Shown piece by piece: positions 11,643 through 58,892 of a stretch of DNA of 64,000 nt (the first letter of the stretch is position 1; each line of letters starts with the position of its first letter). The stretch lies in sequence record PX393109.1; one strand, 5' to 3'. Made by a program: the position numbers and the translations under genes. Below the pieces are notes generated by a model. The model searched no databases and had not been told where the DNA came from. It was given only the letters and a program-made list of their open reading frames with translations. The stretch is from a phage.

Positions 11643-11653
11643 CAGAGGCGTAC

Positions 11654-11686: not shown

Positions 11687-11704
11687 GTGTAGCGAGGATT
11701 AATA

Positions 11705-12316: not shown

Positions 12317-12322
12317 ATAATT

Positions 12323-13357
12323 ATGACCACCAAAGTAGCTTTTATCATCCCAACCTATCATCGTCTGAAGTCGGTACTCCGTCAGATTCAGTCGTTCAAA
12401 GATGCTAAAAAGACTGACGACTCTATTGAGTATCGCTTCTTCTACTTTATTCAGGATGCCTCCGAAGAAGATAAGGCAATTCTGGAAGAGCAGTTTGGTG
12501 GGGATGAGCAATTTAATTTCTGTCATAGCCCTAAGTACGAAAATCCGGTAATCGGAGAAATCCGTGCCCATGCTCTGGATAAAGCATGGATTGTAATGGA
12601 GAAGCAGGACTGGTGCCCAGACATCTGCTACTTCGTGGATGATGATGTCTGGTTCGCCGACGATATCTTCCATCTGGATCGGTCCATTATCGACTTCGAG
12701 GGATCTGAGTTTGAGATGGCGTTCGTCCGTAGCTTCAAGAACCGTAACTACAAGATTGTTGAACTCTGCGATCGTCAGTCCCATAATAACACTGCTCCGG
12801 CTACTGACCTGGGTATTATGGTCAAGACTAGCGAGAAGATGTTCTGGCTGTTCGATAAGACCTTCCAGCAACTCACTGTAGGTGAGGATTGCTACCTGTT
12901 GTTTAAAGGTATGGCGATGGGATGGAAAGTGGGCCAGGTAACCGGTACTGGTAGCTCGTTCTACTGGGATGAGAACTGGTTAATGGACACCTCTTCTAAT
13001 GGCGGTGGTATTCACGAAGTCACCGTAGCTAAGCTAGGCTACTCTCCGAAAGATATGGTAACTCGTAATGAGCTGCTTAGCCGTCCAGATAAGTCCTACG
13101 TACAGTGGCATTGTGCAGATATGTTCCACTATGACTCTGCAGATAGCTCGTTCCGTCGTATTCGTCCCAACATCCAGGAATACTTGAAAGAGTATTGTAC
13201 GGCTACCGAAGATGCAATTATCCGAGCTCCTGGTGCTGGGGTAATGAAGTTCGATGGAACTAACCGTACGGTATTCGGATTAAACAAAGACTATTCCTAC
13301 TTAACTGATCTCAATGATAAGTGGCTGAGTTGGGCATCAGCTAATTCGCTTCTTTGA
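12323..13357 (+). CDS. GT-A fold glycosyltransferase (family 2-like)
   Basis: N-terminal AFIIPTYHR and DXD-type YFVDDD motifs. Confidence 0.5.
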   Translation: MTTKVAFIIPTYHRLKSVLRQIQSFKDAKKTDDSIEYRFFYFIQDASEEDKAILEEQFGGDEQFNFCHSPKYENPVIGEIRAHALDKAWIVMEKQDWCPDICYFVDDDVWFADDIFHLDRSIIDFEGSEFEMAFVRSFKNRNYKIVELCDRQSHNNTAPATDLGIMVKTSEKMFWLFDKTFQQLTVGEDCYLLFKGMAMGWKVGQVTGTGSSFYWDENWLMDTSSNGGGIHEVTVAKLGYSPKDMVTRNELLSRPDKSYVQWHCADMFHYDSADSSFRRIRPNIQEYLKEYCTATEDAIIRAPGAGVMKFDGTNRTVFGLNKDYSYLTDLNDKWLSWASANSLL

Positions 13358-13382
13358 TGAGCTAAAAGGCTGTTACATTGTG
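13346..13382 (+). promoter_or_regulatory. class A conserved promoter-like motif, copy 5 (core embedded in hairpin GGCTGT..ACAGCC)
   Basis: TCGCTTCTTTGATGAGCTAAAAGGCTGTTACATTGTG. Confidence 0.55.
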
Positions 13383-13404
13383 ACAGCCTACGGAGAAATT
13401 AAAT

Positions 13405-14484
13405 ATGAAAATTGCAGTAACTAACTTTTCGCCATGCAGCGATAAATCCATCATCGCCAGTAACACTCTGGCATCCTGGTTAGCCTACGGACTTCAGGCG
13501 GACTTGCTGGATGATACTCCTAAGTTTGTTAAGGCTATGGAAGATGGCACCAAATATGACGTGATCATCGCCGTCAATGGTGTTCCTACCTTCTGTAAGT
13601 TCCGCGATGAGATGTATAAATTCTGGGTAGACCAGGCGGACCTCGGAGCTAAGTTTTACTGGATTGGTCAAGATTATTCATCACGTATGCGTATCCAGGG
13701 TCCGCAGTGGCGACACATCACAGCAGCTACGACATTTAAAGTAGTAGCAGCATTCGAGCGTACTTCCTGGGGTAATCAGTACTCCCCTAGCGAAGAGAAC
13801 TATCACCACATTAACTGGAACCGTCTTACCTACGTTCCTGGTCGTAAGCCTCGCTACGGCTCATCTGATAAACCAGACAATAGCCTGCTGTATTACGGTG
13901 CTGCTCGTGAAGGTCGCTTCCATAAGTTCACTCAGTACTTCTCCCAGCAGGATGGTCTGGAACTGTTTATGTCGGTGCCTAGCTACAAAGCTCAGATGTC
14001 TATCGCTAAACATACTGGTGGTCTTGCTGGATTTGACGGCTACGAGCAGGAAAACTGGGAAGAGCTGGATCCTAAAGAACGTAAGTGGCTGGGGCCTGCT
14101 GCTCCTATTAACTGGCTGCCTAAGTTTAAGCTGTCAGAGATGCTGGATGAAGTGGCTAAATACGCAGCGGTACTGCTTATTGAAGACTGGAACTCTAGTA
14201 ACTCGTTCTATACCAGCCCACCTAACCGTTATTATGAATACCTGAGCTCTGGTACTCTGATGTTGGTGGATAAAGATGCTGCCGGAACAATAATCCGGAG
14301 CGGCGTCCCCGAAGAGCTGCTGGCTCCTCTGATCGTCTCCAGTAATGCGGAGATTGCAGAGAAACTGAAAGATCGTGATGCTCTGCTGAAACATCAGTAT
14401 GAGAATCTGTATCTGCGCAAGGATTACGCACAAGAACTTCAGGATGAAGTAATCGACTACTTTACCAAAGAAGGTATTCTTTAA
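13405..14484 (+). CDS. DNA beta-glucosyltransferase-like protein (T4 BGT-like, GT-B fold)
   Basis: Several colinear blocks resemble T4 beta-glucosyltransferase as I recall it (MKIAVTNFS vs MKIAIINMG; YDVIIAVNG; YYGAAREGRFHK vs YGGSFRSGQRE; RYYEYLSSGTLMLVD vs RVWETMASDAVMLID). Recall-based, needs alignment. Confidence 0.5.
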   Translation: MKIAVTNFSPCSDKSIIASNTLASWLAYGLQADLLDDTPKFVKAMEDGTKYDVIIAVNGVPTFCKFRDEMYKFWVDQADLGAKFYWIGQDYSSRMRIQGPQWRHITAATTFKVVAAFERTSWGNQYSPSEENYHHINWNRLTYVPGRKPRYGSSDKPDNSLLYYGAAREGRFHKFTQYFSQQDGLELFMSVPSYKAQMSIAKHTGGLAGFDGYEQENWEELDPKERKWLGPAAPINWLPKFKLSEMLDEVAKYAAVLLIEDWNSSNSFYTSPPNRYYEYLSSGTLMLVDKDAAGTIIRSGVPEELLAPLIVSSNAEIAEKLKDRDALLKHQYENLYLRKDYAQELQDEVIDYFTKEGIL

Positions 14485-15455
14485 TGTCAACACCGTTAGG
14501 TCTGCATTACGAAGGACTCCTTGGGATGATAAATCCTGAGGAGTTACGGGAGTATGTGGAGTATAACCGTGAACGTACAGAGGTTTATTATAAGAAGGAG
14601 GTGCTTAAGCTGCCTCCTCCGTGGACGGAACATAAGTGGATTAGTAAGTTCAAATTCACTAACGTGTTCCGTAAGCACGATCGTGAAACAGTGTGGGCTA
14701 TTAAGAACATTCTGGAGAACGATTCTTTAAGCTGGGAGAGTAAAGCACTTAATGTAGTACTCTTCCAGATGATAAACCGTGGTGATTCATATATGGATCG
14801 CTTCCGCAGAGTCCTTCCTCTTTATGAGATGAGCTATGACGACATACATAACATGGGTCGCGAAGAGCTACGTCGTTATGAGGATGGTCCTCCGTTCACC
14901 GCTCCACAGCAATCAAATGCCTACTTCCTTAGCACAGCAGTTAAGATGGCTAATGAAGTATGTCCAGAGGATATTAAGTACAGTGTAGCTGCCAGAGCCT
15001 ATCTGGTGAAGACCTACAGTGATCCTATCTTATGGGCATGGAAGTCTCCGTTCGCTACCGAGGCTATCGAGCATCTGTTACAGGTATCTGGATTAGGTCC
15101 GTTCATGGCATATCAATGCTGGGCAACTATGTCCTACTCTAAAGAGACTGCGTATACAGATAATGACGCTATCGTATGTGGACCTGGGACTCAGGATGGG
15201 GTATGGTACATGATTAATGACCAGAATCCTCCCTGTGGTTATCAGGTATTCGTGGAATGGTGGTATCAGAACATCAAAGAGATATGTGCACATTTCGGGT
15301 ATTCATGGGAACCGGAGAAATGGTTCCACTTCATGCCAGAGGATGAGCGATTCTATACTCGCCAGATGTTCACCAACTCATTCTGCGAATTCTCGAAACT
15401 ACATAAACTGAATCACGAGATCCGTATGAGACCTCGCTGGTATAAGTTTAGCTAG
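14484..15455 (+). CDS. hypothetical protein (323 aa), member of putative modification cluster
   Basis: ORF translationally coupled (TAATG) to upstream gene; no confident domain. Confidence 0.5.
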   Translation: MSTPLGLHYEGLLGMINPEELREYVEYNRERTEVYYKKEVLKLPPPWTEHKWISKFKFTNVFRKHDRETVWAIKNILENDSLSWESKALNVVLFQMINRGDSYMDRFRRVLPLYEMSYDDIHNMGREELRRYEDGPPFTAPQQSNAYFLSTAVKMANEVCPEDIKYSVAARAYLVKTYSDPILWAWKSPFATEAIEHLLQVSGLGPFMAYQCWATMSYSKETAYTDNDAIVCGPGTQDGVWYMINDQNPPCGYQVFVEWWYQNIKEICAHFGYSWEPEKWFHFMPEDERFYTRQMFTNSFCEFSKLHKLNHEIRMRPRWYKFS

Positions 15456-15481
15456 TTCACATTTACACCAGCCTTTTTAGT

Positions 15482-15517
15482 CCGCTCTTTTAGGGTCTTG
15501 AAAGGCTGTTAAAATGT
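15482..15517 (+). promoter_or_regulatory. class A conserved promoter-like motif, copy 6
   Basis: CCGCTCTTTTAGGGTCTTGAAAGGCTGTTAAAATGT. Confidence 0.6.
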
Positions 15518-15544
15518 GGGAAAGATTCTTAATTGGAGAGAATA

Positions 15545-16267
15545 ATGAGAGACTATAGTATCCCAGGCTACAGTGTAATTATGTCTGGTGCGCAGGGTAC
15601 CGGTAAATCTACCCTGGCTAAAGGTTGGGAAGAATCAACCGAATGTACCTTCCGTGCAGTACAGACTCGTGACCATCTTCCTCTGGGAGTAACATCCCAT
15701 ATGGATATTCTGCGCTTAGCTGTAGAAGATCCTATGGAAGCGGTAGAGTTCCAGCTGCGTCTTATTCGTCAGCGAACTCAGATGTTCAAGGATGCCTACA
15801 ATCGTGGCGAGTTGATCGTCAGTGATCGTGCGGTATTCGATTCGTACGTTTACTTCCTGCTGCATAACAGTATGTTTGCCAGCCAGGAAGCTCGTGATGA
15901 GGCATTACGTCTCAGTAACGAGTCTATTGATTATTATAACATGACTCTGTTCTTCAATACGAAGGATAAGAGTATTGAGGACAATAACTTCCGTGTTGTT
16001 GATCCTGAATACTCTGTAGCAGTCAGTTCTACTCTCCTTAAGGTAACTATGCGTGCCTACGAGGAGCGATTCGGTGCTGCGTTGTGTAATTCTGTAACTC
16101 TGAATCATCCGGTGTATCCTGGATCAATCACAGCTCGTTTTACTAATACTGGTAAAGGTATTATGATCCTGAACGAGCCATCTGGTATGATCCCTCAGGA
16201 GGCCCGTCTGGAGTTACTGTCCTCTGCAGTTAAGTCTATTGATTCAGTGCGTAAGGACTCTAAATGA
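15545..16267 (+). CDS. P-loop nucleotide/deoxynucleotide kinase (dNMP kinase-like)
   Basis: Walker A MSGAQGTGKST near N-terminus, DR..FDSYVY lid-like region; size and layout resemble dNMP/dNK kinases. Start at ATG 15545 (track start is TTG). Confidence 0.55.
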   Translation: MRDYSIPGYSVIMSGAQGTGKSTLAKGWEESTECTFRAVQTRDHLPLGVTSHMDILRLAVEDPMEAVEFQLRLIRQRTQMFKDAYNRGELIVSDRAVFDSYVYFLLHNSMFASQEARDEALRLSNESIDYYNMTLFFNTKDKSIEDNNFRVVDPEYSVAVSSTLLKVTMRAYEERFGAALCNSVTLNHPVYPGSITARFTNTGKGIMILNEPSGMIPQEARLELLSSAVKSIDSVRKDSK

Positions 16268-17337
16268 TCTCGGTAATTCGCGGTAACAGTAATACTGAAA
16301 TCCTGGTTAACAGCATCAATACTATGGATAAGGCTGGTGAGTTGCAGAAGTCCAGAACTTCTGTTAACTCTTCGGCGGTAGTATCCATCGGTCATGCTGT
16401 AGTTGAGTTAAGTAATCCGATTAATCGTTGGATGGCTCATCCAGAACGTAAAGACAATATCCTCGGAATTATGGGGGAAGTATTGTGGGTACTGTCTGGT
16501 GGCTATGCAATCGATAACTGGATGTCGATTATGGTTCCTCGCGCTAAGATGTTTAGCGATGATATGGTTACCTGGCGTGGTGCTTACGGTGAGCGTCTGT
16601 ATAACTACGATCAACTCCAGACTGTAACAGACCGCCTCCGTTCTGACCTGGGTAACCGTAAGTGCGTGGCTACTATTCACGATCCCAGCCGTGATTCTGA
16701 TGTAGGTCTGGTAAACAGCATTGGCAGCATCAATACCGCAGATATGATCTGCAACATTGCTCTATCGTTTAAGTACCGTAATGGTGGTCTGGACTGCACG
16801 GTATTCAACCGTAGTAATGATCTAATCTGGGGATTGACTAACGTTAATCTGGTGGAGTTCACGATCATCCAGGAAATCATCGCAACTATGCTCAAAGTAG
16901 ATATGGGCAACTATGTGGTGATGACGGATGATCTCCACTGGTATCCGGAAGTGTCGAACATCAAGAAGCAGGTAAGTAATATCCGAGCTTATGTTGACGA
17001 CATTAATGAAGCTCCGGTAACTACGATTGATCTCGGATCACTTAATTCCTGGTATAAGATCCGTACCTACTTCCAGCATTACATCGCTACTCTTGAAGAT
17101 GCTGCTTCTCGTTATAATAGCGATCACAGTATTCTAGAATACGTAATGGAAGATGTTGGTCGAGAGTTCCAACCAGGATCAACTCTGGATGTGATGATGT
17201 GGTTAGCAGGCGCTCATTATCTATGTAAGACTACTGGAGCTCACATGTCTATCCAGTGCGAGCATCTGGTTAATTCACCATTCGTGAAATGGGTCGCGAA
17301 CCGCCTCGGGGATAAGTCTCCGTTTATTCTGGAATAA
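16264..17337 (+). CDS. thymidylate synthase / deoxypyrimidylate hydroxymethylase superfamily enzyme (ThyA-gp42 fold)
   Basis: Colinear ThyA-family motifs: EVLWVLSGG, WRGAYGERLY, DQLQ..RKCVATIHDP, catalytic-Cys region MICNIAL, NRSNDLIWGL, DDLHWY. The RSND and C-x-N features resemble T4 dCMP hydroxymethylase more than canonical ThyA. Confidence 0.7.
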   Translation: MISVIRGNSNTEILVNSINTMDKAGELQKSRTSVNSSAVVSIGHAVVELSNPINRWMAHPERKDNILGIMGEVLWVLSGGYAIDNWMSIMVPRAKMFSDDMVTWRGAYGERLYNYDQLQTVTDRLRSDLGNRKCVATIHDPSRDSDVGLVNSIGSINTADMICNIALSFKYRNGGLDCTVFNRSNDLIWGLTNVNLVEFTIIQEIIATMLKVDMGNYVVMTDDLHWYPEVSNIKKQVSNIRAYVDDINEAPVTTIDLGSLNSWYKIRTYFQHYIATLEDAASRYNSDHSILEYVMEDVGREFQPGSTLDVMMWLAGAHYLCKTTGAHMSIQCEHLVNSPFVKWVANRLGDKSPFILE

Positions 17338-17373
17338 CCGCTCTTTTTAGGGCTCGAAAGGCTGTTAAGGTGT
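17338..17373 (+). promoter_or_regulatory. class A conserved promoter-like motif, copy 7
   Basis: CCGCTCTTTTTAGGGCTCGAAAGGCTGTTAAGGTGT. Confidence 0.6.
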
Positions 17374-17420
17374 GGGAGGCAACTTCCATACCTTTATTTT
17401 TGTAACTTAGGAGAAATTAC

Positions 17421-18020
17421 ATGAAAGATCTTTTTAAGGTACCAGTGTGTACCAATAACGTGAATCGTTTCGCAGGTAAGCAAGTACTGTCTCATCGCTC
17501 TACTATCTCGGAGCATAGCTTCGAAGTTACTTACTACTCTACTCTGATTGTTCAGAAACTGGTGATGGATGGATTTTTAACTGCTGAGCAGGGTCTGGAA
17601 GTAAATCAGTACTCGTTGGTTCACGACATTCCAGAGATCTTTACAGGTGATGTCCCCTACACTGCTAAGGCTCGCTTCCCAGAGTTAAAAGAGACTCTGA
17701 ATAAAGTTGAGCAGGAAATCTGGGAAGAGGTACTTCCTACTTTCCGCACTCCTGCATCTGCCGAAGCTAAGTTCATCTGTAAAGTTGCAGATGCTATTGC
17801 GGTATCTCGTGAGATCATGACTGAGTTCAGCATGGGTAACATCTTCTTTGGCGAAAGCGAGCTGGAGAACTGCCGCAACATCTTCAGTACCTGCTTCAAT
17901 AAGTACAAAGACGAAGTGAGTGATGATGTATGGATGGGTACTCTCCAGTCTCTTCTCCATATGGCACATGGTAGTTCAATAGAGCACCTGGTTAAAGAGA
18001 CTATTGGCAATGCAGATTAA
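17421..18020 (+). CDS. HD-domain phosphohydrolase (YfbR-like 5'-deoxynucleotidase)
   Basis: HSFEV...VHDIPEIFTGDVP...KVADAIAV matches H...HD...D metal-binding pattern of YfbR-type HD nucleotidases. Confidence 0.65.
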   Translation: MKDLFKVPVCTNNVNRFAGKQVLSHRSTISEHSFEVTYYSTLIVQKLVMDGFLTAEQGLEVNQYSLVHDIPEIFTGDVPYTAKARFPELKETLNKVEQEIWEEVLPTFRTPASAEAKFICKVADAIAVSREIMTEFSMGNIFFGESELENCRNIFSTCFNKYKDEVSDDVWMGTLQSLLHMAHGSSIEHLVKETIGNAD

Positions 18021-18330
18021 TATTCCTGAAACTGTTTACGTTGAGAGCTCGTTCGCTCGGACAATTGGTGCTGACGATCAGCACAGTAGTCGTATTGCTC
18101 CAATGAAGCTGCGTAAGAGTGGCTACATTGTTGGAGCTGGCTCATCGGTAGAGTTTCCGGTAGATAGTACGGTAACTGTCGACTCTATCTCTAATCTTTC
18201 TGTATCTTACCTGGGCTTAACTGCTCAGGTATTCTCTACAGACGAAGGTAAGTGGATTCGTCTGACTAACTCTAACAAGAACCATGCAGTACGCATCCAT
18301 GCGGGTCAGAGTTTAGTCTATGGAAATTGA
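18010..18330 (+). CDS. hypothetical protein (106 aa)
   Basis: ORF overlapping 3' end of HD gene; no domain recognised. Confidence 0.4.
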   Translation: MQINIPETVYVESSFARTIGADDQHSSRIAPMKLRKSGYIVGAGSSVEFPVDSTVTVDSISNLSVSYLGLTAQVFSTDEGKWIRLTNSNKNHAVRIHAGQSLVYGN

Positions 18331-19312
18331 GTCTCTAACTCGTATAAATGAATACTTGGTTAGGGTTACTCCCAGAGTTTACATGTTCGAAGCAGATAAG
18401 TATCCTGGTAATGTCCAGATAGCTAACGAACATAAGGGGGAGGAGCTCCGACTGTGTCCCACCTGTGAACTTATGGGGGAACCGAACTCTAAGTGGACAT
18501 TTTACTGGAACTACAATAAGCAGACTGGAATATGCCATCGTTGCCATTGTAAGTTCATACCTTTCTCGAATAAGAGTAAGGAAGAGTTAGAATTAGAGCT
18601 AACTATCCGTGGGTGGATAGCTCATTCTGATAAGCAGGTAGTCCGGAGTTTATCTTCGGTGCCAGAGATTCAGTATGAGAGGATGTTTGATCCTCCTTCT
18701 GATTTCTGTAAAGAGTATTTGGCTAACCGCAACCCGCTCCTACAGGGTATGGAAGATTATTTCCAGATCCGCGAACTTAAGGGAGTAGGTGTGGCAGCTC
18801 CGATGTATTTTAAGGGTAAGATCATATCTTATACGATGCGTCTGTACGAGCCGATAGGTAAAAGGAAATACCATATTCCTCCTGGGGATAAGTATATCTA
18901 TAGTCCGAATCGTGCTCTGAAGACTAGTCTATACGGAGGTATGACTAAGTTCAGCTTATGCGAGGGTATGTTTGATGCTTTCGCAATGTTGCTGTTAGGC
19001 TACGATAACCCATTAGCTGTCCAGGGATCTTTCCTCACCGATACCCAGGCCAGGATGATGAGTCAGTTCTTCCCGGAAGAAGGTCAGATATTTCTTGACA
19101 GTACGGATTTATCTTTTGAACTGCGCAATAGCGTAAGACAGAAGGTGAAGAGTATTCGTCAACTGCGAGTAGTCTACAGCGATGGTGAGGATCCTGAGGA
19201 ATTACTAATACGGAAACTGCAGAATGGTACTGATGAGTTCATCCAGTCCGTATTAGACAGAAGAGAGAACTTAATATGCAATATGATGTCGAAGGAATCC
19301 TCGATAGCGTAG
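18320..19312 (+). CDS. DNA primase (zinc-ribbon + Toprim, DnaG-like)
   Basis: CPTC...CHRCHC zinc-binding motif followed by Toprim-like CEGMFDA and DSTD acidic motifs. Confidence 0.6.
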   Translation: MEIESLTRINEYLVRVTPRVYMFEADKYPGNVQIANEHKGEELRLCPTCELMGEPNSKWTFYWNYNKQTGICHRCHCKFIPFSNKSKEELELELTIRGWIAHSDKQVVRSLSSVPEIQYERMFDPPSDFCKEYLANRNPLLQGMEDYFQIRELKGVGVAAPMYFKGKIISYTMRLYEPIGKRKYHIPPGDKYIYSPNRALKTSLYGGMTKFSLCEGMFDAFAMLLLGYDNPLAVQGSFLTDTQARMMSQFFPEEGQIFLDSTDLSFELRNSVRQKVKSIRQLRVVYSDGEDPEELLIRKLQNGTDEFIQSVLDRRENLICNMMSKESSIA

Positions 19313-20913
19313 TGGAGGAGACGTTCCCGGACTTTAGCTATCGAGCTAATCAGCGCGAAACTATCATCAAGATTCTGGATGCGTTCATTAATAAGAATAA
19401 GAAGACGGTGCTGCTGAATGCTCCTACCGGTGCTGGTAAATCGTGGATCTCTCGAATCGTAGCCGAAGTAATTAATCAGCTGTTCGAGACCGATTCTCTA
19501 TTCATTACCAAGACGATTGCTCTCCAGCAGCAGTATCTTCGCGACTTTAAGGATATGAAGCAGTTGATGGGTGCTACGAACTATAGCTGCCACACAGACC
19601 TGACTCTGCCCATTCCTCCGAAGAAGAAACATCACCCTACCTGTCGCTATCGTAAGACGGACGGGTGCTGTGAGTATGCGGCAGCTCGTAATGCGTGGAA
19701 AGATTCACCACTTAAGAACCTTAACTATGCATTCTTCTTTACTGCGGATGGTAAGTACACTGCAGAAGGACTGCTGGTGGCGGACGAAGCCCATACTCTG
19801 CCAGGATCTCTTATTGATCGCTCCGAAGTTACTATCAACATCAGTCGTCTTATGGACCTAACTCCAGAATTCGACATGGGGGATTACATTCCGGTTGCTG
19901 AGATTCAGAGGACTAAGCACTTCAAGATCAACTACATCTTCGACCTGCTACCATATCTTACCCAGGCTAAATCTGTTCTATACGCTCAGATTCGTGATCT
20001 GGAGAAGGCTATCGAGAAGTTCGATGCTATCGGTAACAAGGCTCAGGTAGAGTCGCTGATCGCGAGTAAACTGGGACCTCTGGAATCTCGAGCTAGCCTG
20101 GCTTCAGAGACCGTGTCCGGGATTAATACAATCATCGCTACGGATCCAGATCAGTGGGTACTGTACGAAGATACTGGTGAGCGAGATCTGATGTTTAAGT
20201 TCAAGCCACTGGAAGTACTGGACTCTTCAGCTAGCTTGATTATGCATCCAGAGTATCGTCTGCTGATGACTGCTACTCCGTTTAATCTTATCTATGATCT
20301 GAAACTGAGCATGGATGATACGGAAGTAATCACTACTGATTATGCATGGCCTCTGGAGAATCGTCCGTTTATTGTGGAACGTTCTCTTCCTAGCATGAAC
20401 TTCAAGACTAAGGCGGATGTGTTCCCGGAATATGTAGAAGCTCTGGATAACTTCCTGGAGGGACTGGGAGATGACACTGCTTGCGGACTGGTTCACTCTG
20501 CATCGTATGCTAATGCTGAGGAGATCAAGAAGTTAAGTAAGTATGCCGACCGTATGTACATTCCCACCTCTAGGGAAGTGCGAGACATCACTAAGCTGAT
20601 GACTCCTGGTCGCATTATCGTGTCTCCGTCTATTCTGGAGGGCGTGGACTTACATGGCGATCTTGCCAGATTCCAGGTATTCTTCAAGATCTCCTATCCT
20701 AACCTGGGTGATCTCTGGGTAGAGCGCAAGAAAGTGCGTGATCCGGAGTGGTATAATATCCAGCCTATGATAGCCATCATCCAGGGTAGTGGTCGTGCTG
20801 TACGTAGCCATGACGATTTCGCAGTAACCTACATGATGGACCCATCCTTCCAGAGACTGCTGGATAACCTTAAGGGACAAGTGCCCGAGTGGTTCCTACA
20901 GACCCTCATCTAA
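19276..20913 (+). CDS. SF2 DEAH-box helicase (DinG/Rad3-like)
   Basis: Walker A LLNAPTGAGKS, DEAH box LVADEAHTLP, C-terminal EGVDLHG and QGSGRAVR motifs. Confidence 0.7.
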   Translation: MQYDVEGILDSVVEETFPDFSYRANQRETIIKILDAFINKNKKTVLLNAPTGAGKSWISRIVAEVINQLFETDSLFITKTIALQQQYLRDFKDMKQLMGATNYSCHTDLTLPIPPKKKHHPTCRYRKTDGCCEYAAARNAWKDSPLKNLNYAFFFTADGKYTAEGLLVADEAHTLPGSLIDRSEVTINISRLMDLTPEFDMGDYIPVAEIQRTKHFKINYIFDLLPYLTQAKSVLYAQIRDLEKAIEKFDAIGNKAQVESLIASKLGPLESRASLASETVSGINTIIATDPDQWVLYEDTGERDLMFKFKPLEVLDSSASLIMHPEYRLLMTATPFNLIYDLKLSMDDTEVITTDYAWPLENRPFIVERSLPSMNFKTKADVFPEYVEALDNFLEGLGDDTACGLVHSASYANAEEIKKLSKYADRMYIPTSREVRDITKLMTPGRIIVSPSILEGVDLHGDLARFQVFFKISYPNLGDLWVERKKVRDPEWYNIQPMIAIIQGSGRAVRSHDDFAVTYMMDPSFQRLLDNLKGQVPEWFLQTLI

Positions 20914-28501: not shown

Positions 28502-30016
28502 ATGATCGTATCAAAGTCCTTGAATGAATTACACCGTCTTATTGATATGAAAGAAGCAACCTACACCACTCCGGTGCGTTTTTACTTCTCTGATGGTCCT
28601 AAAGAAACTACTATCGGTCGACTGTTTATTTGGGAAATCAGCGGCTATCTTCCAGAGAAAGAAATAGATAAGAAGGAATCTGCGAAGATCGTCTCTTACA
28701 TCAATAATAACTATACTCCGGAAGTGGCTGGTCGCCGACTGCATAAGTTGCAGCAGTTCGGATTTCATAAGGCTACTCAGTCTGGTCTGAGTTTATGTTA
28801 CGACGACACTAAGTTTGACTTCGGTATAGACTTTCCAGCCATGACTCAGGAACTCGGTAAGATGGGGTACGAGGATCGTCTGGCTGCTGCGGATAAAGTC
28901 ATCAACGAATGTACCGATCGCTGGTTTAAGGAAGTAGACCGTCATAATCCGCTGTATGCGATGGGTGTATCTGGTGCTCGTGTATCTCCTCCCCAGGTTC
29001 GTTCGATGGTGGTGGCTAAAGGCCTTCTGGTGGGCATGACTGGCAAGATCATGCCGATGCCGATCATGGAGAACTTAAGCTCTGGATTATCTCCCATCAA
29101 CTACTTCAATACCTGCGGACCTGCTCGTAAGGGTCTGGCTGGTAACTTCTTCCTGGTACCTGCGACTGGTTGGTTTGCTCGCCAGCTGGTTAACTGTTCC
29201 AGAGAGTTGTCTATTGTAGAAGAAGACTGCGGAACTAAGGAAGTAATCACCTTACCTAAGAAATCAGCACTGTATCGATTCACTAGCGACCGAATAATGG
29301 TTACTAAAGAGAATGTGGATCAGCTGGCGGATGAAGAAGGTAATGTGAAAGTCCTTAGCCCTATCACCTGTGAATCAACTAAGGGTGGGGTATGTCAGCA
29401 TTGCTGTGGTATGGATCCCGCTAAGCCTGCTAACTTCTTCCCTATTAACTTCGGTATTGGAACGGCGTCGGCGCAACATATCTCCGAACCATCTACTCAG
29501 GCTGGTCTCCGTGGTAAGCATACATCTGGTTCGACTACGCTTAAGGAATTCGGTACTTCGGTAAGTAACTCCTTAGCCGATATCCTGAAGACGGTAGGTG
29601 GCCGAGGAACTGCGGTGGCTCAGGTATCTGAGTCTAAGTATAAGTGCATCACGGATCTTGCCCACGAAACTGGATCAGCAATTAAAGGTGCAGAGTTAGC
29701 TGCGATTCAGCTTAAGCACATCTTCGACGACATCGGTATCGGTATCGCATCGATTCACCATGAGATCATTGCTCGCGGTTGTACTGATCTGGTTAAGATG
29801 AATAATGGACGAATCGGTGTTCGCAGCATGGGAGATAAGGGTGAGGTACTGGCGATTAAAGCCGATGCCATCCCTACGAAGCATCCCAGCTGGTTGAAGT
29901 CTATTGGCCATGGTAACGTTAAACGTAGACTTACTGATGCAGTGCTTAATGGTGATGTTAGCTTCGGAACCCGTTCCGAGATGATCATTGCTGGGTTAAA
30001 TCTGAATAACAAATAA
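28502..30016 (+). CDS. RNA polymerase beta-prime-like subunit, C-terminal half (bridge helix/trigger loop region)
   Basis: NTCGPARKGLAGNFFLVPATGWFARQLV resembles beta-prime region F (STHGARKGLADTALKTA..GYLTRRLV); ASAQHISEPSTQAGLRGKH resembles trigger-loop AAQSIGEPGTQLTMRTFH. Confidence 0.75.
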   Translation: MIVSKSLNELHRLIDMKEATYTTPVRFYFSDGPKETTIGRLFIWEISGYLPEKEIDKKESAKIVSYINNNYTPEVAGRRLHKLQQFGFHKATQSGLSLCYDDTKFDFGIDFPAMTQELGKMGYEDRLAAADKVINECTDRWFKEVDRHNPLYAMGVSGARVSPPQVRSMVVAKGLLVGMTGKIMPMPIMENLSSGLSPINYFNTCGPARKGLAGNFFLVPATGWFARQLVNCSRELSIVEEDCGTKEVITLPKKSALYRFTSDRIMVTKENVDQLADEEGNVKVLSPITCESTKGGVCQHCCGMDPAKPANFFPINFGIGTASAQHISEPSTQAGLRGKHTSGSTTLKEFGTSVSNSLADILKTVGGRGTAVAQVSESKYKCITDLAHETGSAIKGAELAAIQLKHIFDDIGIGIASIHHEIIARGCTDLVKMNNGRIGVRSMGDKGEVLAIKADAIPTKHPSWLKSIGHGNVKRRLTDAVLNGDVSFGTRSEMIIAGLNLNNK

Positions 30017-31595: not shown

Positions 31596-33164
31596 ATGAA
31601 ATTAAAGTTATCTATTGCAACTGATGATGTAATCCGTGCCGAGTCCAGTGGTGAAGTAACCAGTATGGGCATGTATAACCTTAAGTTCCATGATCCTAAG
31701 CCATTCACTGGTGGGTTATTCTGCCAGCGTATCTTCGGACCTCTGGTAACTGGTAAGTGTGAGTGTGGTAACCAGCTGGTTATGGGAGCGCCTCCGTGTA
31801 ATGTGTGCGGTATGGTAGCTATGCATCGTGAATCTCGTCGCCGCCGTATGGGTCACATCGAGACGATCGTTCCTTATGTGAATCCATTAGCTATCAAACG
31901 TATGGCTGCGCTATTCGGATTCCCAGAGCGAGAATTCGGTCAGTTCCTTATCGGTAAATATCGCTTCGTAGTTCAGGAAGCTGGTCTGGCAGCTAAGATG
32001 GTTGGTGATGATCGGGAGCGGGTTCGTGAGGCTAATGCTGCTCTTCCGGAATATGAAGATCGTGAGAAGTATGCGATGTTCTACTCTAACACTATCCCAG
32101 TTCAGGATAGCACGAAGCGCCTCGCAGTGGTAATGATTAAGATCCGCCGTATGTCAGAGCACGAGTCATCAGAGTTAGGTCTTCTGAGTCTTATCCAGGC
32201 ATTGGTAGCTAATCATGCTGATATGAAAGCCTATATCGAAGAGTGCGAAGATCCTACAGTAATCAATAGTGGTTATACAGAGTTCAGCGACTTCTATAAC
32301 ACTACGGTGCTGGTGAATCCTCCTAGCTATCGTGATGTTGGCATCAGCAATGGGGTAATGTCGTATCATCCGACTAACTTACTCTACCTGCGAATCCTGC
32401 GCCATGCTATCCGTATCAGAAGTATTCGCGATACTGCCGAGGCCAGCGAAGCGTTGTTATCTCTGATTCCTCGTGAATCTATTGTAATGCAGAAGATGGT
32501 TAACGGACTAATCCTGGAGGGCACTAAGGACTATCGAGGTAACTTAATTAAGCCGATGATCAATAATCTTAAAGGTAAGGGTGGTCGAATCCGTGGTAAC
32601 CTGTTAGGTAAGCGCGTTGATTACTCCGGTCGTTCTGTAGTTACTTCGGCTCCGCATCTTCCGCTGGATACTCTTGGTGTACCGTTCAAGATGATGTACG
32701 AATTACTTCAGCCAGACATCCTGGGTGAGCTGGAGAACTTATATGGTGGCCCGACTAACGAAGGGTACAACATGTACGACATCAGCAATAAAGTCCAGCG
32801 TATGTACAAGAATAAGTCCCGAGTAGCTCTGGAAGTATGCTGGAGACTGTGTGAGAATGCCACGGTGTTCATGAACCGTGCACCATCCCTACACCGTTAC
32901 TCAGTATGGGGATTTAAGGTCAGACCTCACATGGGTAAGGAGATTCAGGTTCCTCCGATGGCTATGGGTGGTCAGAACATGGACGTGGATGGTGATACCG
33001 CAGCAATTCACCGTGTACTGACTGATCGTGCTTGCTGGGAAGTACGTAGCCTGATGATGGTTAACCAGAACATCAACAGCTCTATTGACTTCGATAGTCC
33101 GGTCGTGAAGCCGTCCCACGAAATGGTGGTAGGTCTGTTCCAGGCAACTACGGTGGATATGTAA
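31596..33164 (+). CDS. RNA polymerase beta-prime-like subunit, N-terminal half (zinc ribbon to catalytic loop)
   Basis: GGLFCQRIFGP...CECG...CNVCG...RRRRMGHIE resembles the beta-prime N-terminal zinc-binding region; NMDVDGDTAAIH matches catalytic NADFDGDQMAVH near C-terminus. Confidence 0.75.
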   Translation: MKLKLSIATDDVIRAESSGEVTSMGMYNLKFHDPKPFTGGLFCQRIFGPLVTGKCECGNQLVMGAPPCNVCGMVAMHRESRRRRMGHIETIVPYVNPLAIKRMAALFGFPEREFGQFLIGKYRFVVQEAGLAAKMVGDDRERVREANAALPEYEDREKYAMFYSNTIPVQDSTKRLAVVMIKIRRMSEHESSELGLLSLIQALVANHADMKAYIEECEDPTVINSGYTEFSDFYNTTVLVNPPSYRDVGISNGVMSYHPTNLLYLRILRHAIRIRSIRDTAEASEALLSLIPRESIVMQKMVNGLILEGTKDYRGNLIKPMINNLKGKGGRIRGNLLGKRVDYSGRSVVTSAPHLPLDTLGVPFKMMYELLQPDILGELENLYGGPTNEGYNMYDISNKVQRMYKNKSRVALEVCWRLCENATVFMNRAPSLHRYSVWGFKVRPHMGKEIQVPPMAMGGQNMDVDGDTAAIHRVLTDRACWEVRSLMMVNQNINSSIDFDSPVVKPSHEMVVGLFQATTVDM

Positions 33165-53672: not shown

Positions 53673-53927
53673 ATGTACTTTACTGATAATATGATCGTAG
53701 GACTGATGATTGCTTATGTCATCGGTGGGATCATCGTTTATCCGATTGCTGCTTATGTTACTGGCAGATTCCGTATTAAGCATGGTGGCTACACAGTATT
53801 GGCTACGGTATTTTGGCCGTTAATCCCTTTCGTGATCGTGGCAGTTATCATAACTAAACTGGCCGAAATAGCTTGCACGAAAGGGTTCCACTACCTCCGC
53901 GATCTCGGTGAGAAACATGCCAATTAA
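53673..53927 (+). CDS. membrane protein (84 aa, 2 TM)
   Basis: Hydrophobic segments IVGLMIAYVIGGIIVYPIAAYV and LATVFWPLIPFVIVAVII. Confidence 0.45.
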   Translation: MYFTDNMIVGLMIAYVIGGIIVYPIAAYVTGRFRIKHGGYTVLATVFWPLIPFVIVAVIITKLAEIACTKGFHYLRDLGEKHAN

Positions 53928-54486
53928 TTTCAGTATGCAGAGTCTTGAAGACTTTGTACCAGAGCATGGTAAGAGCGTAGTAGTCTTCTACCACGAGCGA
54001 TTCTATTCCCGAGTAGAAATGCTACAGATGCAAGTAGAGTTCCACTACCAGATGATAGATGGCGATGGCTGCCCAGTTCCTCAGTGGGCATGCTATGATA
54101 ATCGTGACGACATACCGTTCGATAAGCCATTCATCTGGAAAGATAAGCAGGTTAAGTTCCTTACTCTGGACGACTGTATGGAAATACATAATCGTCATCC
54201 CAAGCACCACTATCGTTACTGGTGGGTTAAGGACTGGTTCCTAACTGGCGGAGGAAATAGCCAGTTAAATAGGGAACAGCTGGCGGAGATGTCGTTAGGG
54301 ATTATGAGTGCCGAACAGTTTAGTGCTGAGCTGGATAAGGGATGTGCTGATCTGGAAGCCAAGCGTATCTTACGTGAATTAACTCGTGAATCCCGTACTG
54401 GATATTGTGAGAAGCATGGCACTCGTCAGCTGGGTAAGGACCTATGTGATGTGTGCCGTATTGAACGTGCATTTATGGAGGGATGA
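53917..54486 (+). CDS. hypothetical protein with Cys-rich C-terminus (189 aa)
   Basis: ATG 53917 (track start is GTG); C-terminal CEKHG...CDVC. Confidence 0.4.
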   Translation: MPINFSMQSLEDFVPEHGKSVVVFYHERFYSRVEMLQMQVEFHYQMIDGDGCPVPQWACYDNRDDIPFDKPFIWKDKQVKFLTLDDCMEIHNRHPKHHYRYWWVKDWFLTGGGNSQLNREQLAEMSLGIMSAEQFSAELDKGCADLEAKRILRELTRESRTGYCEKHGTRQLGKDLCDVCRIERAFMEG

Positions 54487-55142
54487 TGCGGATCTGGACC
54501 GACAAGAACTCTATTCTGGAGTTTATCGGAGAGTACCGATTCCTATCTAACTTTTATCCTGTTCCTATTGAGGATAAGAATCCTTACGGGAACGAGACTC
54601 TTCCCTCCCTTACTTACCCTAGTGTGGAGCATGCCTATCAAGCATCTAAGTCTCCATCACTAGCCCATCGTCTTATCATAGCTAGACTTCATACTCCTGG
54701 TGAGGCCAAGAGATATGGACGTAAGCTGCCCATTACTGAATCGTGGAAGGAACAGAGAGTAGATGTGATGGAACACCTACTCCGGATTAAATTCGCGAAA
54801 GGTGGGGAGCTAGCTCAAAAATTGACCGATACTTGGCCTAAGGAGCTGGTCGAAGGAAATACCCACGGAGATTCCTTCTGGGGTATGACTCGTGAGGAGT
54901 ACAAGTCCGTCCTCACTGGTATTAATATGCTCGGACGATTACTGATGAAACTTCGGGAGGAGTTAGTTATGGAACAAATGACCAAGGAGACAGGATCGTT
55001 TGCGGAGTGGCATAAACTGCTGCACCAATACGCTCAGTCTCGTGGCGGTAGCGCTGCTGATGCGGAAGCCTGGCGGGATGATTACGATGAAGGTAAGACC
55101 CCTAAGCAGGCCTACGACGATGAGTGGGGCGAAGAAGACTAA
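54483..55142 (+). CDS. NADAR/YbiA-family protein (DUF1768; N-glycosidase / ADP-ribose-processing fold)
   Basis: FLSNFYPVPI...YPSVEHAYQASKS...GEAKRYGRKLP..SWKEQRVDVMEHLLRIKF...HGDSFWG colinear with E. coli YbiA as I recall it. Confidence 0.7.
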   Translation: MMRIWTDKNSILEFIGEYRFLSNFYPVPIEDKNPYGNETLPSLTYPSVEHAYQASKSPSLAHRLIIARLHTPGEAKRYGRKLPITESWKEQRVDVMEHLLRIKFAKGGELAQKLTDTWPKELVEGNTHGDSFWGMTREEYKSVLTGINMLGRLLMKLREELVMEQMTKETGSFAEWHKLLHQYAQSRGGSAADAEAWRDDYDEGKTPKQAYDDEWGEED

Positions 55143-55150
55143 CCTATCTT

Positions 55151-55180
55151 AGCGCTCTTTAGGGAGCGCTATTTTTATTT
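55151..55180 (+). terminator. rho-independent terminator (AGCGCTC-TTTAGGG-GAGCGCT + T-run)
   Basis: 7-bp stem then atttttattt; loop contains the CTCTTTAGGG core shared with class A/B motifs. Confidence 0.65.
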
Positions 55181-55196
55181 AATGTTGGGAGTAATT

Positions 55197-55436
55197 ATGG
55201 AACAACCTATCCAAGCAGTAACTAATGCGGTTGGGAGCATGCAGATCGTGGGTTATGATACCTATGAGCAAGTAGCTCAATCAGTTAAACTCGATCCTCG
55301 CAAGAAGCGTCGTGGTCATCGTCGAGCAGCTAAGAGTCTGCTTAGTAATGGTGGGGTCTTCAATAACTACTCTGCACCAGGAACTACATTCTGGTGGGTC
55401 GCACAATGGCATCTTAAGAAGGCACGTAATGGCTGA
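55197..55436 (+). CDS. hypothetical protein (79 aa)
   Basis: ATG after TGGGAGTAATT. Confidence 0.45.
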   Translation: MEQPIQAVTNAVGSMQIVGYDTYEQVAQSVKLDPRKKRRGHRRAAKSLLSNGGVFNNYSAPGTTFWWVAQWHLKKARNG

Positions 55437-55846: not shown

Positions 55847-56560
55847 ATGTCTACTAAGATGATGCCACACCATCTGGCTCCGAATAAACTGTTTAACCGA
55901 TTCCTGTCATATCACGACTCCTACCACTGCGCAATTGACATCGAGACCGAGTATCTCGATTTTAAAGAGCCTGGGGTAGTTCTATCTGTAGGTATGGTGA
56001 CGGTTGGTCCTGATCACTACTCCCACGTCTACTTCACTATTGATCGAGAAGAGTCGCTGGCTCTGGGTATGAAGTCTGACCCTAACGTAGTTGAATGGCT
56101 CAACACTCTCCCGAAACCCGTCCGTGATGCTGCATATGCTAATCCAGTATCTGTTGACGAAGCTCTGGATATCATCGAAGAGTACGTAGCTAAGGTACTA
56201 CAGGATCCTGGTTGCCAGATGTTGAACTTCATCGGTAACGCACCAGAGTTCGACCAGGGATTCCTGGATTGGTACTTTAAGGCTAAAGGACGTAAGACCC
56301 CGTTCCTACACTGGATGAATCGAGATTACCGCACTCTGGCTAGTCTGCAGCTGATCTCATTCGATGATCGTCGCATGATTAAAGAAGAACTGAGTAGCCA
56401 GCACGAGTCTATGTCTGATCACCATGCATTGTTCGATGCGATGCTGGAAGCTAAGACTTGGGTTCGCACCATCAATCGTGTAAAAGAGTTACAGGATCTG
56501 GAGCACGAGGTGAATACCATGATTGCTATGCAGGGTAACTCTGTGGAAGATGGAGAGTAA
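55847..56560 (+). CDS. DEDDh 3'-5' exonuclease (DnaQ/RNase T-like)
   Basis: Exo I CAIDIETEY, and C-terminal H...D motif HHALFDAMLEA. Confidence 0.65.
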   Translation: MSTKMMPHHLAPNKLFNRFLSYHDSYHCAIDIETEYLDFKEPGVVLSVGMVTVGPDHYSHVYFTIDREESLALGMKSDPNVVEWLNTLPKPVRDAAYANPVSVDEALDIIEEYVAKVLQDPGCQMLNFIGNAPEFDQGFLDWYFKAKGRKTPFLHWMNRDYRTLASLQLISFDDRRMIKEELSSQHESMSDHHALFDAMLEAKTWVRTINRVKELQDLEHEVNTMIAMQGNSVEDGE

Positions 56561-56911: not shown

Positions 56912-57136
56912 ATGCAATCACGTCGTATTGGTTTGTTAAGCGGTATCGGTATGGTTCTGGCTGGATTAGGTCATATGTGGCCCACCCCAGCAGTGTCTGC
57001 TAAAGGCTATGACGGATTCCGTCGCGCCTGTACCAAGGTAAGCTGCCCTAAGACTACTACAGCATCTGCATTAAAGCGTGCGGCTAAGAAGGCTAAAGGC
57101 CGTAAGGTTAATAAGCAACGTCACAAGGGTAAATAA
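56912..57136 (+). CDS. small protein with N-terminal hydrophobic segment and basic tail (74 aa)
   Basis: GLLSGIGMVLAGLG hydrophobic; C-terminal KKAKGRKVNKQRHKGK. Confidence 0.4.
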   Translation: MQSRRIGLLSGIGMVLAGLGHMWPTPAVSAKGYDGFRRACTKVSCPKTTTASALKRAAKKAKGRKVNKQRHKGK

Positions 57137-57516
57137 TGTCTCATATGACCCGAGAAGAAATCGTATTGATGGTGGCTAAGGTGTGTCACGAAGCTAATCG
57201 TGCATACTGCCATTCTATCGGAGACTTCACCCAATTAAGCTGGGAAGCAACATCCGATGAAATAAAACAGTCGGCTATTGATGGAGCGTATAACTGCTTA
57301 CACAATAACCGTATCAGCCCAGAAGAGTCCCATGAATTCTGGGTTAAAACTAAAAAGGAGCAGGGCTGGAAGTATGGAGAAATCAAAGATCTCGCAGCTA
57401 AGACGCACCCGTGTATGGTTCCATATTCACGGTTGCCGGAAGAGCATCGAGTCAAAGATCACCTCTTCACCAGCATCTGCGCAGCATTCATTAAACAGTA
57501 CAAAAGGGCATCATGA
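57136..57516 (+). CDS. hypothetical protein (126 aa)
   Basis: ORF with ATGTCTCATATG start region. Confidence 0.4.
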
Positions 57517-57983
57517 TGACCGTAGTTCAAGTAAAGAAAACTATTAACTGGGACGACTCTCTGGAGTTACCGAAATACGCTAAAGCTGGTGATGCTGGTC
57601 TTGATCTTCGTGCGATGATTAAGACTGACGAAATCGATAAAATCGCTGTAAATCCTGGCGAAACTATCCTGGTCCCTACCGGTCTAGCGATCAACATCGG
57701 CGATCCGAACATCGCTTCTGTGATTCTTCCCCGCAGCGGCCTCGGCCATAAAAATGGCATCGTACTGGGTAACTTGGTTGGTCTTATCGACTCCGGCTAT
57801 CAAGGAGAACTGATGGTGTCTGTGTGGAACCGTAGTAACGAATCTTTCGTTATTAACCACGGCGACCGTATCGCTCAAATGGTGTTTCTTCCCGTTATCC
57901 ATCCAGAGCTCCAGCTTGTGGATAAATTCTCTGATGTTTCTGAACGTGGCGACGGTGGGTTTGGCCATTCCGGGATTAAGTAA
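57513..57983 (+). CDS. dut: dUTP diphosphatase (trimeric dUTPase)
   Basis: Canonical dUTPase motifs [27 protein letters not shown], and C-terminal [10 protein letters not shown]. Confidence 0.85.
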
Positions 57984-58065
57984 TCCTGGGGTAGTTAGAC
58001 TACGGTAATTACTATTGACCTCTTTGCGGAGAGGTCAATGTTATTCTACCATAGAACCGAGGAAT

Positions 58066-58269
58066 ATGATGGATATTGAGCAACTAACTAAGGATCTTAA
58101 TCGTAACCAGATTACGGTTATTCGTTCGGAGCACTTAGCTCCCAAGACTATGATCGTGTCTGATGATATCTGGGGCACATTCAAGAATAATAATAATAAT
58201 AATAATAATAATGCTACTGTAGAAGCTACAGATGAAGAATCTGTTAAGAACATGCTGGAGCATCCGTAA
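58066..58269 (+). CDS. hypothetical protein with poly-Asn tract (67 aa)
   Basis: ATG after CCGAGGAAT; contains (AAT)9 encoding N9. Confidence 0.4.
   Translation: MMDIEQLTKDLNRNQITVIRSEHLAPKTMIVSDDIWGTFKNNNNNNNNNATVEATDEESVKNMLEHP
58186..58212 (+). repeat. (AAT)9 trinucleotide microsatellite within coding sequence
   Basis: aataataataataataataataataat read directly. Confidence 0.9.
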
Positions 58270-58892
58270 TGATCCTTGGTAAATCTTATATTGAGCAGGC
58301 AATTACTCAAGGATTATGGACCTATCACAGTTATCTGGACAATCAGGAACCACGAATCGGACAGAATAGTGTAGATGTACGCTTAGCTCCGTTCTTCCTG
58401 GTTCCTCAAAAGATGCCTGATGGCCATGTAGTAGATCCCTATAAACCATGTACTCTTCCGGAGTATCGCGAGGTAGAGGCACTATACTACGATCTTAAAC
58501 CTGGGGAGTTCATCTTAGGCTCAGCATCTGAACGTATCGACTGTACTACCATGTTGCCTGAGAAGTGGTTCGAGCATTATGACCCACGATACCGTAACAG
58601 CACTGTAGACCGTGGTGTGGCATTCTGTCAGCATTACGACGGTCGCAGCACTATGGGTCGTCTGGGAATACTGAGCCATGTCAGTGCAGGTTTCGGGGAC
58701 TTTGGATTCAAGGGAGCATTTACTCTAGAGATTGTTAACCTAAGCCCTAACACTATCCGACTGCGTTCTAACATGCGCATCGGTCAGATTTACTTTACTG
58801 AGGTTGCTGGTGGTGGCTACGACCTTTACAAAGGTTACGACCAGACTGACTTTAAACCAGTCGCACCAATCATAGGTCGCGATCGTTTCTAA
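58269..58892 (+). CDS. dcd: dCTP deaminase-like (Dcd/dUTPase superfamily)
   Basis: NSVDVRLAPFF and GRSTMGRLGILSHVSAGFGDFGFKGAFTLEIVN colinear with E. coli Dcd (VDVRLG; GRSSLARLGLMVHVTA..DPGW.G...LEF.N) as I recall it. Confidence 0.65.
   Translation: MILGKSYIEQAITQGLWTYHSYLDNQEPRIGQNSVDVRLAPFFLVPQKMPDGHVVDPYKPCTLPEYREVEALYYDLKPGEFILGSASERIDCTTMLPEKWFEHYDPRYRNSTVDRGVAFCQHYDGRSTMGRLGILSHVSAGFGDFGFKGAFTLEIVNLSPNTIRLRSNMRIGQIYFTEVAGGGYDLYKGYDQTDFKPVAPIIGRDRF

Follow-up and report, generated by a model that had tools for sequence, protein, structure and literature searches.

The window analysed here, a 64,000-nucleotide stretch of a phage genome of ~116 kb (sequence record PX393109.1), contains a gene whose product joins a NADAR domain with an intact active site to a small acidic module from an unrelated protein family. 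I propose, at a probability of roughly 0.55, that this product is a NADAR ADP-ribosyl N-glycohydrolase made in infection, which would act in the manner of an orphan antitoxin as a counter-defence against a DarT1-type toxin. The concept of such counter-defence was already established in 2023-2024, and what sets this gene apart is only its lineage-specific fusion to a member of the PHROG 519 family. The gene and its parts, in coordinates of the window, are:

54483-55142, plus strand: open reading frame (ORF) of the NADAR-tail fusion, 219 amino acids from the first ATG, from the ORF list
54504-54968, plus strand: NADAR catalytic core, residues ~8-162, from Pfam, PHROG 1017, the fold match and residue mapping
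Within the core: active-site residues S22-N23-F24, E49, K56, K76, R80, W88, R92, E124 (the catalytic Glu), D130 and W133
54956-54980, plus strand: fusion junction, a Shine-Dalgarno-like GGGAGGAG followed by the in-frame ATGs of M163 (54969) and M166 (54978), read directly from the sequence
54969-55142, plus strand: C-terminal module (the tail), residues 163-219, 57 residues, an acidic three-helix bundle of PHROG 519
55150-55181, plus strand: intrinsic-terminator-like hairpin with a T-run, 9-bp stem, -14.1 kcal/mol, 8 nucleotides past the stop codon, from a terminator scan and RNA folding

The reading frame is exactly the one given in the earlier note, which was made from the letters without database searches, and the motifs quoted there are all present, with FLSNFY at residues 20-25, EHAYQASK at 49-56 and FWG at 132-134. 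That note described the protein as colinear with YbiA/NADAR. This holds for residues ~8-162 but not for 163-219, a fused module that the note overlooked and that is matched over residues 157-219 at E=1.6e-19 by PHROG 519, a family of small proteins with no relation to NADAR.

Over 5 kb around the gene, the DNA is 96.4% identical to that of Escherichia phage vB_EcoM_IME392 (IME392) and 92.7% identical to that of EP_H11, the only related records among 50,697 phage genomes, and the full-length fusion protein is 98.6% and 95.4% identical to the respective orthologues. Translation probably starts at the second ATG (54486), for a product of 218 amino acids, because this ATG overlaps the stop codon of the upstream ORF as TGATG, is preceded by a GGAG element, and agrees with the 218-residue annotations of the EP_H11 orthologue and the metagenomic copies. 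Codon differences from EP_H11 are 27 synonymous against 8 nonsynonymous in the core and 9 against 2 in the tail, so both parts of the fusion gene are under purifying selection.

That residues ~8-162 constitute a NADAR domain is unambiguous. Pfam family PF08719 matches residues 17-161 over profile positions 9-162 of 163 at 94.9 bits (gathering score 35.1, E=7.9e-27), PHROG 1017 matches residues 8-169 (E=4.9e-38), and the sequence matches in the PDB are YbiA (2B3W, 2e-14) and PnNADAR of Phytophthora (8BAU, 1.7e-10). An AlphaFold2 model built with 121 homologues has a mean predicted local distance difference test (pLDDT) score of 86.2, with values above 90 across most of residues 10-170, and displays the YbiA-like alpha-helical core flanked by two small beta-sheets. 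When this model was used as a Foldseek query, the same two structures were returned, both at probability 1.0 (target-normalised template modelling (TM) score of 0.72 for 2B3W and 0.63 for 8BAU), and there were no other significant matches.

The crystal structure of PnNADAR shows contacts to ADP-ribose from E43, K50, K75, R79, Y84, W89, R93, E125, D130 and W133 (PMC11543638). Residue mapping finds nine of these ten positions kept in the present protein, as E49, K56, K76, R80, W88, R92, E124, D130 and W133. The position of E124 is known to be catalytic from mutagenesis of D171 in the E. coli C7 NADAR and of E167 in SCO5665. With nine contacts retained, E124 among them, the active site looks intact and the enzyme catalytically competent. 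Across the 121 homologues the active-site positions are 98-100% conserved, except for R80 and R92, where basic or polar residues occur.

Pairwise identities to Bas32, YbiA, T4 AdfN and a PnNADAR fragment (not a full phylogeny, and with NADAR-Bas60 and E. coli C7 DarG1 left out) place this protein among the phage orphan NADARs of the Bas32-like, Glu-type clade. Its core is 47% identical to NADAR-Bas32 and 48-55% identical to a set of NADARs from phages and metagenomes, and identity falls to 39% for E. coli YbiA and to 22% for T4 gp30.3. The protein forms a group with Bas32 and the other phage and metagenomic NADARs in which mutual identity is 45-56%. NADAR-Bas32, confirmed by locus tags as bas32_0066 of the T5-like Escherichia phage IrisVonRoten (Markadamsvirinae), is likewise a phage orphan NADAR with no DarT partner; it has the same active-site residues including the Glu at the catalytic position, no N-terminal extension, and a score below the cutoff of TIGR02464. 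It differs in being a single-domain protein of 149 residues, whereas the present protein adds the fused 57-residue module, has a longer first beta-hairpin loop (residues ~30-44), and is carried by an unrelated myovirus with predicted hypermodified thymidine. TIGR02464 is the equivalog model for the riboflavin glycosidase, and at its cutoff of 73.7 bits YbiA scores 169.5, this protein 73.5 and Bas32 66.3. Because YbiA lies so far above the anti-DarTG1 protein Bas32, I take the near-threshold score as general family resemblance and not as YbiA orthology.

The remaining characterized members of the family are further removed. E. coli YbiA is the best structural match and has a Glu-type active site in common with the present protein, but it is chromosomal, with dinG as its neighbour, while the present gene resides in a phage and has the additional module attached; the ORFs scanned in the window include neither riboflavin genes (ribA/ribD) nor a dinG-ybiB neighbourhood. 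AdfN (gp30.3) of T4, of family PF08010, belongs to the same superfamily and has the same fold, the same E-x6-K motif (E36/K43 in T4, E49/K56 here) and a similar proposed anti-DarTG1 role, yet its clade has His where this protein has E124, and AdfN is at its best in the modified-DNA context of the Tevenvirinae and removes guanine-linked ADP-ribose only. A Pfam search gave no match to PF08010 (Phage_30_3), which leaves the present protein outside the T4 gp30.3 clade. DarG1, the DarT1-associated antitoxin of the BC4488 family, has the same proposed chemistry, hydrolysis of guanine-N2-ADP-ribose, but is distinguished by a catalytic Asp, a basic groove formed by a beta1-beta2-alpha1 extension at its N-terminus, and a darT1 gene next to it. 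Here the catalytic position is Glu, the modelled core begins at about residue 10 with no extra N-terminal secondary-structure elements, and there is no adjacent ADP-ribosyltransferase (ART) gene, so the protein is not of the DarG1/BC4488 type. Among the ~45 scanned ORFs of at least 150 amino acids in the window I found no ART, Macro, Nudix or SLOG partner, which makes the NADAR an orphan, as expected of a counter-defence enzyme.

What such an enzyme might do is suggested by its relatives. NADARs reverse the guanine-N2 ADP-ribosylation made by DarT1 (Schuller et al., 2023; PMC11543638), and DarTG1 is overcome in infection by T4 gp30.3 (AdfN) and by two NADARs unrelated to it, NADAR-Bas32 and NADAR-Bas60 (Johannesman et al., 2024; PMC11257639), the latter two neutralising DarT1 in uninfected cells too. 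Catalysis-dependent rescue on DarTG1 hosts has been demonstrated for these three proteins only (PMC11257639). For the present NADAR, what it acts on, when it is expressed and which defence it counters are my inferences. A DarT1-type toxin of the host would add ADP-ribose to guanine N2 in replicating phage DNA; the NADAR would bind this ADP-ribose, its diphosphate held by K56, K76 and R80 in a pocket lined by W88, R92, D130 and W133; and E49 and E124 would position and hydrolyse the bond between the distal ribose and the base, restoring unmodified guanine and allowing replication to continue. Cytosine-linked ADP-ribose on DNA or RNA may also be removed, given the Glu at the catalytic position, as Glu-type NADARs (of the NADAR and YbiA-type families) strip this linkage from both nucleic acids and the Asp and His types do not (2026; PMC12945103). 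Every enzyme molecule in this lineage would also bear the 57-residue acidic three-helix module. Since tested NADARs do not reverse the thymidine-linked ADP-ribosylation made by DarT2 (PMC11125620), the rescue from DarT2 that had been suggested as a check should be negative.

The earlier note had likewise suggested a counter-defence NADAR that would remove ADP-ribose from DNA, and homology supports it in this, through the complete active site, the grouping with the anti-DarTG1 protein Bas32 and the TIGR02464 control. The genomic context is also favourable, in that the gene sits among small accessory genes, an Acb1-like gene is present elsewhere in the window, and a Lar-like gene is present in a diverged relative. 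Several points weigh against a role in countering DarT1. The adenine-stacking Tyr84 of PnNADAR is replaced by P83 here, although this position is variable among homologues and the active Bas32 enzyme has no Tyr there either. In vitro hydrolysis of guanine-linked ADP-ribose is general to NADARs and is no guarantee of protection in the cell, as neither YbiA nor T4 gp30.3 relieved the toxicity of DarT1 when no phage was infecting. This protein has nothing like the DNA-groove extension at the N-terminus of DarG1, the conserved DUF4326 gene nearby suits a small-molecule ADP-ribose pathway at least as well, and the scan for an ART partner covered 64 kb of the ~116-kb genome.

The origin of the fusion can be traced by comparison with the diverged relative, the Logan contig L007. 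Its NADAR is a tail-less protein of 149 amino acids, 53% identical to the present one, that ends ...RGELLTFSK*, and it lies in the same gene order as here: the upstream orphan, NADAR, a gene of 69-79 amino acids, and later the exonuclease, DUF4326, RyR-domain and dUTPase genes. DNA homology between the window and L007 extends through the codons LMK(L/I)R(E/G)EL and then ends. The ~215 extra base pairs that the window and EP_H11 possess relative to L007 comprise GGGAGGAG, the ATGs, the 57-codon module and the terminator. This extra DNA has the anatomy of a moron-like cassette of ribosome-binding site, ATG, ORF and terminator, which was inserted at the NADAR 3' end so that the original stop codon was lost. 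The terminator-like hairpin belongs to this inserted cassette and closes the transcription unit; it does not occur in L007, where 15 nucleotides separate the NADAR gene from the next gene. The GC content of the tail is 54.0%, against 46.5% for the core. The fusion is no assembly artefact, since it is seen in three isolates and in two independent metagenome assemblies. Stand-alone proteins of the module family start MTK/N-x-x-x-S-F-E-E-W, which aligns with M166-TKETGSFAEW, and the ATGs of M163 and M166 both correspond to where the stand-alone genes begin; internal translation starts at M163 or M166 are possible judging from the junction. As a candidate for the unfused module I considered the 69-residue gene 3' of the tail-less NADAR in L007, but rejected it, as it is the orthologue of the window ORF at 55182-55436.

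The tail itself belongs to a small and little-annotated family. Residues 167-219 contain 14 D/E against 6 K/R, and the tail is 54-62% identical, with 25 invariant columns, to stand-alone proteins of 58-64 amino acids from the Shiga toxin (Stx) phage ArgO145 and from Ackermannviridae such as Salmonella phage Mutine. The motif of the PHROG 519 family, F-x-EWH...GGSAADAEAWRDDY-x-x-GKTP...DEWG (the third position given also as F-x-E-W), is kept in the tail. Pfam had no match for the tail or for its stand-alone homologues, and a word-indexed search with a 61-residue tail returned no matches; relatives were found by tblastn on phage records and by HMMER. An exhaustive HMMER search with the tail among 1.84 billion representative proteins found 40 clusters, nearly all of them stand-alone proteins of 48-99 amino acids, and none of the tail-family clusters listed is a NADAR fusion. 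Conversely, a search of 5.8 billion proteins yielded 1,570 NADAR homologues, and the sole full-length match of those listed is one 99%-identical cluster. The only other extended architecture found is that of P0122, a metagenomic protein of 127 amino acids with a DUF1187 N-terminus followed by the tail module from an internal Met. It is probably a read-through of two adjacent prophage genes, and its architecture implies that the module tends to abut other small genes.

It is distinctly unlikely, in my estimate, that the tail is functional and not an accident, either providing a second counter-defence activity, for example by binding DarT1 or another DNA-binding defence protein, or targeting the enzyme to the replisome. 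If it did, the fusion may be a two-pronged antitoxin mimic that couples reversal with inhibition or targeting, convergent with DarG2. The likeness to DarG2 is by analogy only: there too an enzyme that removes ADP-ribose has a second domain attached at its C-terminus, which in DarG2 binds DarT. The DarG2 enzyme is a macrodomain, with a fold unrelated to NADAR, and its substrate is thymidine-linked ADP-ribose; I claim no likeness between its C-terminal domain and the tail.

The main rival to a counter-defence against DarT1 is that the NADAR degrades a soluble ADP-ribose derivative, such as a TIR/NADase signal, a toxin or an RNA-repair by-product, together with two proteins encoded in the next transcription unit:

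55847-56560, plus strand: Rv2179c-like 3'-5' exonuclease, Pfam 68.2 bits
56550-56873, plus strand: DUF4326 protein, Pfam 63.7 bits

It owes this rank to the published DUF4326-NADAR fusions and to a NADAR homologue (P0009, 51% identical) that is fused to the related domain DUF488-N3a, yet I consider it unlikely. DUF4326 is part of a rhodanese-phosphatase clade that is repeatedly fused to NADAR, Macro and SLOG in DNA viruses and is predicted to process ribose-linked phosphates of ADP-ribose derivatives (PMC9503650). The two genes overlap by 11 nucleotides, which suggests translational coupling, and are followed by genes for a RyR-domain protein and a dUTPase. Both they and the NADAR gene are retained in the diverged L007, in which the DUF4326 ORF (4821-5144) had been missed by the gene finder, and this joint retention speaks for a common pathway. 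The DUF488-N3a domain of P0009 has a CxC...CH motif in common with DUF4326, but the C-terminal domain of P0009 and the local DUF4326 are alike at the level of this motif only (BLASTP E=0.014), and I did not use the resemblance as strong evidence. The NADAR and DUF4326 genes are moreover separated by the terminator-like hairpin and by variable accessory genes. In the literature surveyed no NADAR has been shown to act on such soluble signals, and three of three tested phage NADARs counter DarTG1.

It is less likely still that the ADP-ribose which the enzyme strips from nucleic acids comes from toxins other than DarT1, for example through pierisin/ScARP-like modification of cytosine or guanine, or through ADP-ribosylation of RNA by defence or interbacterial toxins; the selective pressure that matters would in that case not be DarTG1. 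The Glu at position 124 is compatible with this broader range, as enzymes of that type remove ADP-ribose from both cytosine and guanine on DNA and RNA, whereas those with Asp (DarG1) or His (T4) act on guanine only (PMC12945103), and a YbiA-type antitoxin exists for YarT, an ART unrelated to DarT. No such toxin has been tied to anti-coliphage defence in the literature surveyed, however, and the closest tested relative, Bas32, counters DarTG1.

A third explanation takes its cue from the remainder of the window, in which a toolkit for thymidine hypermodification is spread over 8482-20913, 43204-45977 and 57513-58892:

8482-9222: methyltransferase
11705-12316: PIG-L deacetylase
14484-15455: 5-hydroxymethyldeoxyuridine (5-hmdU) DNA kinase, 121.7 bits
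16264-17337: thymidylate-synthase-like enzyme
17421-18020: YfbR-like 5'-deoxynucleotidase
43204-43911: DUF7217 protein
43908-45043: two MptE-like proteins
45009-45977: GT1 glycosyltransferase
57513-57983: dUTPase
58269-58892: dCTP-deaminase-like protein

This toolkit fits the published grouping of IME392 and EP_H11 with the "RP13-like" phages (SP-15, YerA41, Carin-5), for which oligosaccharide-hypermodified thymidine has been proposed (PMC12686479). The NADAR could then be a damage-control N-glycosidase for the pathway of nucleotide or base hypermodification, clearing aberrant ribosylated pyrimidine intermediates by analogy with YbiA. I judge this very doubtful. In its favour are the 5-hmdU DNA kinase, thymidylate-synthase-like, dCTP-deaminase-like, dUTPase and glycosyltransferase genes of the window, the SP-15-like hypermodified thymidine predicted for the phage group (PMC12686479), the distance of at most 3.5 kb from the NADAR gene downstream to the dUTPase and dCTP-deaminase-like genes, and the position of the Bas32 NADAR gene beside those for ribonucleotide reductase, dihydrofolate reductase and thymidylate synthase. 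This support is contextual, though, and the NADAR gene belongs to a different transcription unit, surrounded by accessory genes, while T5-like phages with the same type of NADAR are not known to modify their DNA.

Non-enzymatic binding of ADP-ribose or of an ADP-ribosylated effector, in the manner of a phage NADAR reported to inhibit Retron-Eco1, is highly improbable. The precedent is another phage NADAR that needs no enzymatic activity (Carabias et al., 2024, by its citation in PMC11257639). The acidic tail could serve such a protein as an interaction module, but the full catalytic set of the present enzyme is conserved under purifying selection. The ADP-ribose-binding inhibitor of Carabias and colleagues is reportedly named U56.

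Finally, orthology to YbiA as a housekeeping N-glycosidase for riboflavin-biosynthesis intermediates, the alternative raised in the earlier note, is barely credible: a TIGR02464 score only 0.2 bits under the cutoff and the name 'ribA/ribD-fused uncharacterized protein' given to many metagenomic homologues by the Joint Genome Institute (JGI) are outweighed by the 169.5 bits of YbiA itself and the 66.3 of the anti-DarTG1 Bas32, which make the borderline score no sign of YbiA function, by the 39% identity to YbiA, by the lack of riboflavin genes among the scanned ORFs, and by the lytic phage that carries the gene.

If the enzyme is active against DarT1-type modification as proposed, the RP13-like group with its predicted hypermodified thymidine would be a fourth independent phage lineage with an orphan NADAR, which would reinforce guanine ADP-ribosylation of the DarT1 type as a widespread pressure on coliphages. 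A phage with probable bulky thymidine modifications would also be a natural system in which to ask whether hypermodification blocks the thymidine-specific DarT2 and leaves guanine exposed, and in which to follow the action of a Glu-type NADAR on heavily modified DNA. Should the tail prove functional, the fusion would act as a Rosetta stone and point to an anti-ADP-ribosylation role for the PHROG 519 family of Stx-converting and Ackermannviridae phages. Nothing here is surprising to specialists; the one-off fusion is a testable lead on a small phage protein family present in Stx-converting phages.

On its 5' side the NADAR gene, which the terminator scan makes the last of its transcription unit, is preceded by an orphan:

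53908-54486, plus strand: upstream ORF, 192 amino acids, in TGATG overlap with the NADAR gene, lineage-restricted

The overlap couples this ORF translationally to the NADAR gene. A search of 5.8 billion proteins gave just three clusters of homologues of its product, each of them from this phage's relatives, and apart from a weak sub-threshold match to DUF5662 the product has no domains. The upstream region consists of an 84-residue membrane-like ORF (53673-53927) and the 192-residue ORF (53908-54486), a split that is present in both Logan contigs as well, whereas EP_H11 annotates it as a single coding sequence of 269 amino acids. Over 53673-54486, the split as against the single coding sequence may reflect a frameshift, programmed frameshifting or merely the way the genomes were annotated. 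A scan for sigma-70 promoters found 20 against 20.4 expected, that is, no enrichment, and is uninformative in a phage that encodes its own RNA polymerase subunits.

On the 3' side, the interval between the NADAR and exonuclease genes holds other small genes in L007, including a Lar-like restriction-alleviation gene (PF14354, 3846-4076 of the contig), and seems to be an islet in which accessory or anti-defence genes vary. Further downstream, the gene for the RyR-domain protein (57136-57516, 49.3 bits) lies directly upstream of the dUTPase gene and overlaps it, an arrangement conserved in L007 and in the contig L009.

Also present in the window are genes for split multisubunit RNA polymerase beta-prime-like proteins, PolA, PolX, an NAD+-dependent ligase and topoisomerase II. 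The Rpb1/beta-prime domains of the RNA polymerase are divided between 28502-30016 (domains 3-5) and 31596-33164 (domains 1-2), an indication that this coliphage, which at ~116 kb is not a jumbo phage, has a multisubunit RNA polymerase in split form. A full-length transporter of the betaine/carnitine/choline (BCCT) family (10236-11618, Pfam 309.5 bits), an unusual auxiliary gene, adjoins the base-modification genes and might import a precursor for DNA modification. The ORF at 33956-34480 matches the anti-CBASS protein Acb1 barely above the gathering score (28.5 against 27 bits) and may be a second counter-defence gene in the window. At 39788-42569 a gene of the PolX family (DNA polymerase beta-like) adjoins that of the NAD+-dependent DNA ligase, and the two are possibly a phage repair pair for gap filling and ligation; the ligase makes the phage directly dependent on NAD+.

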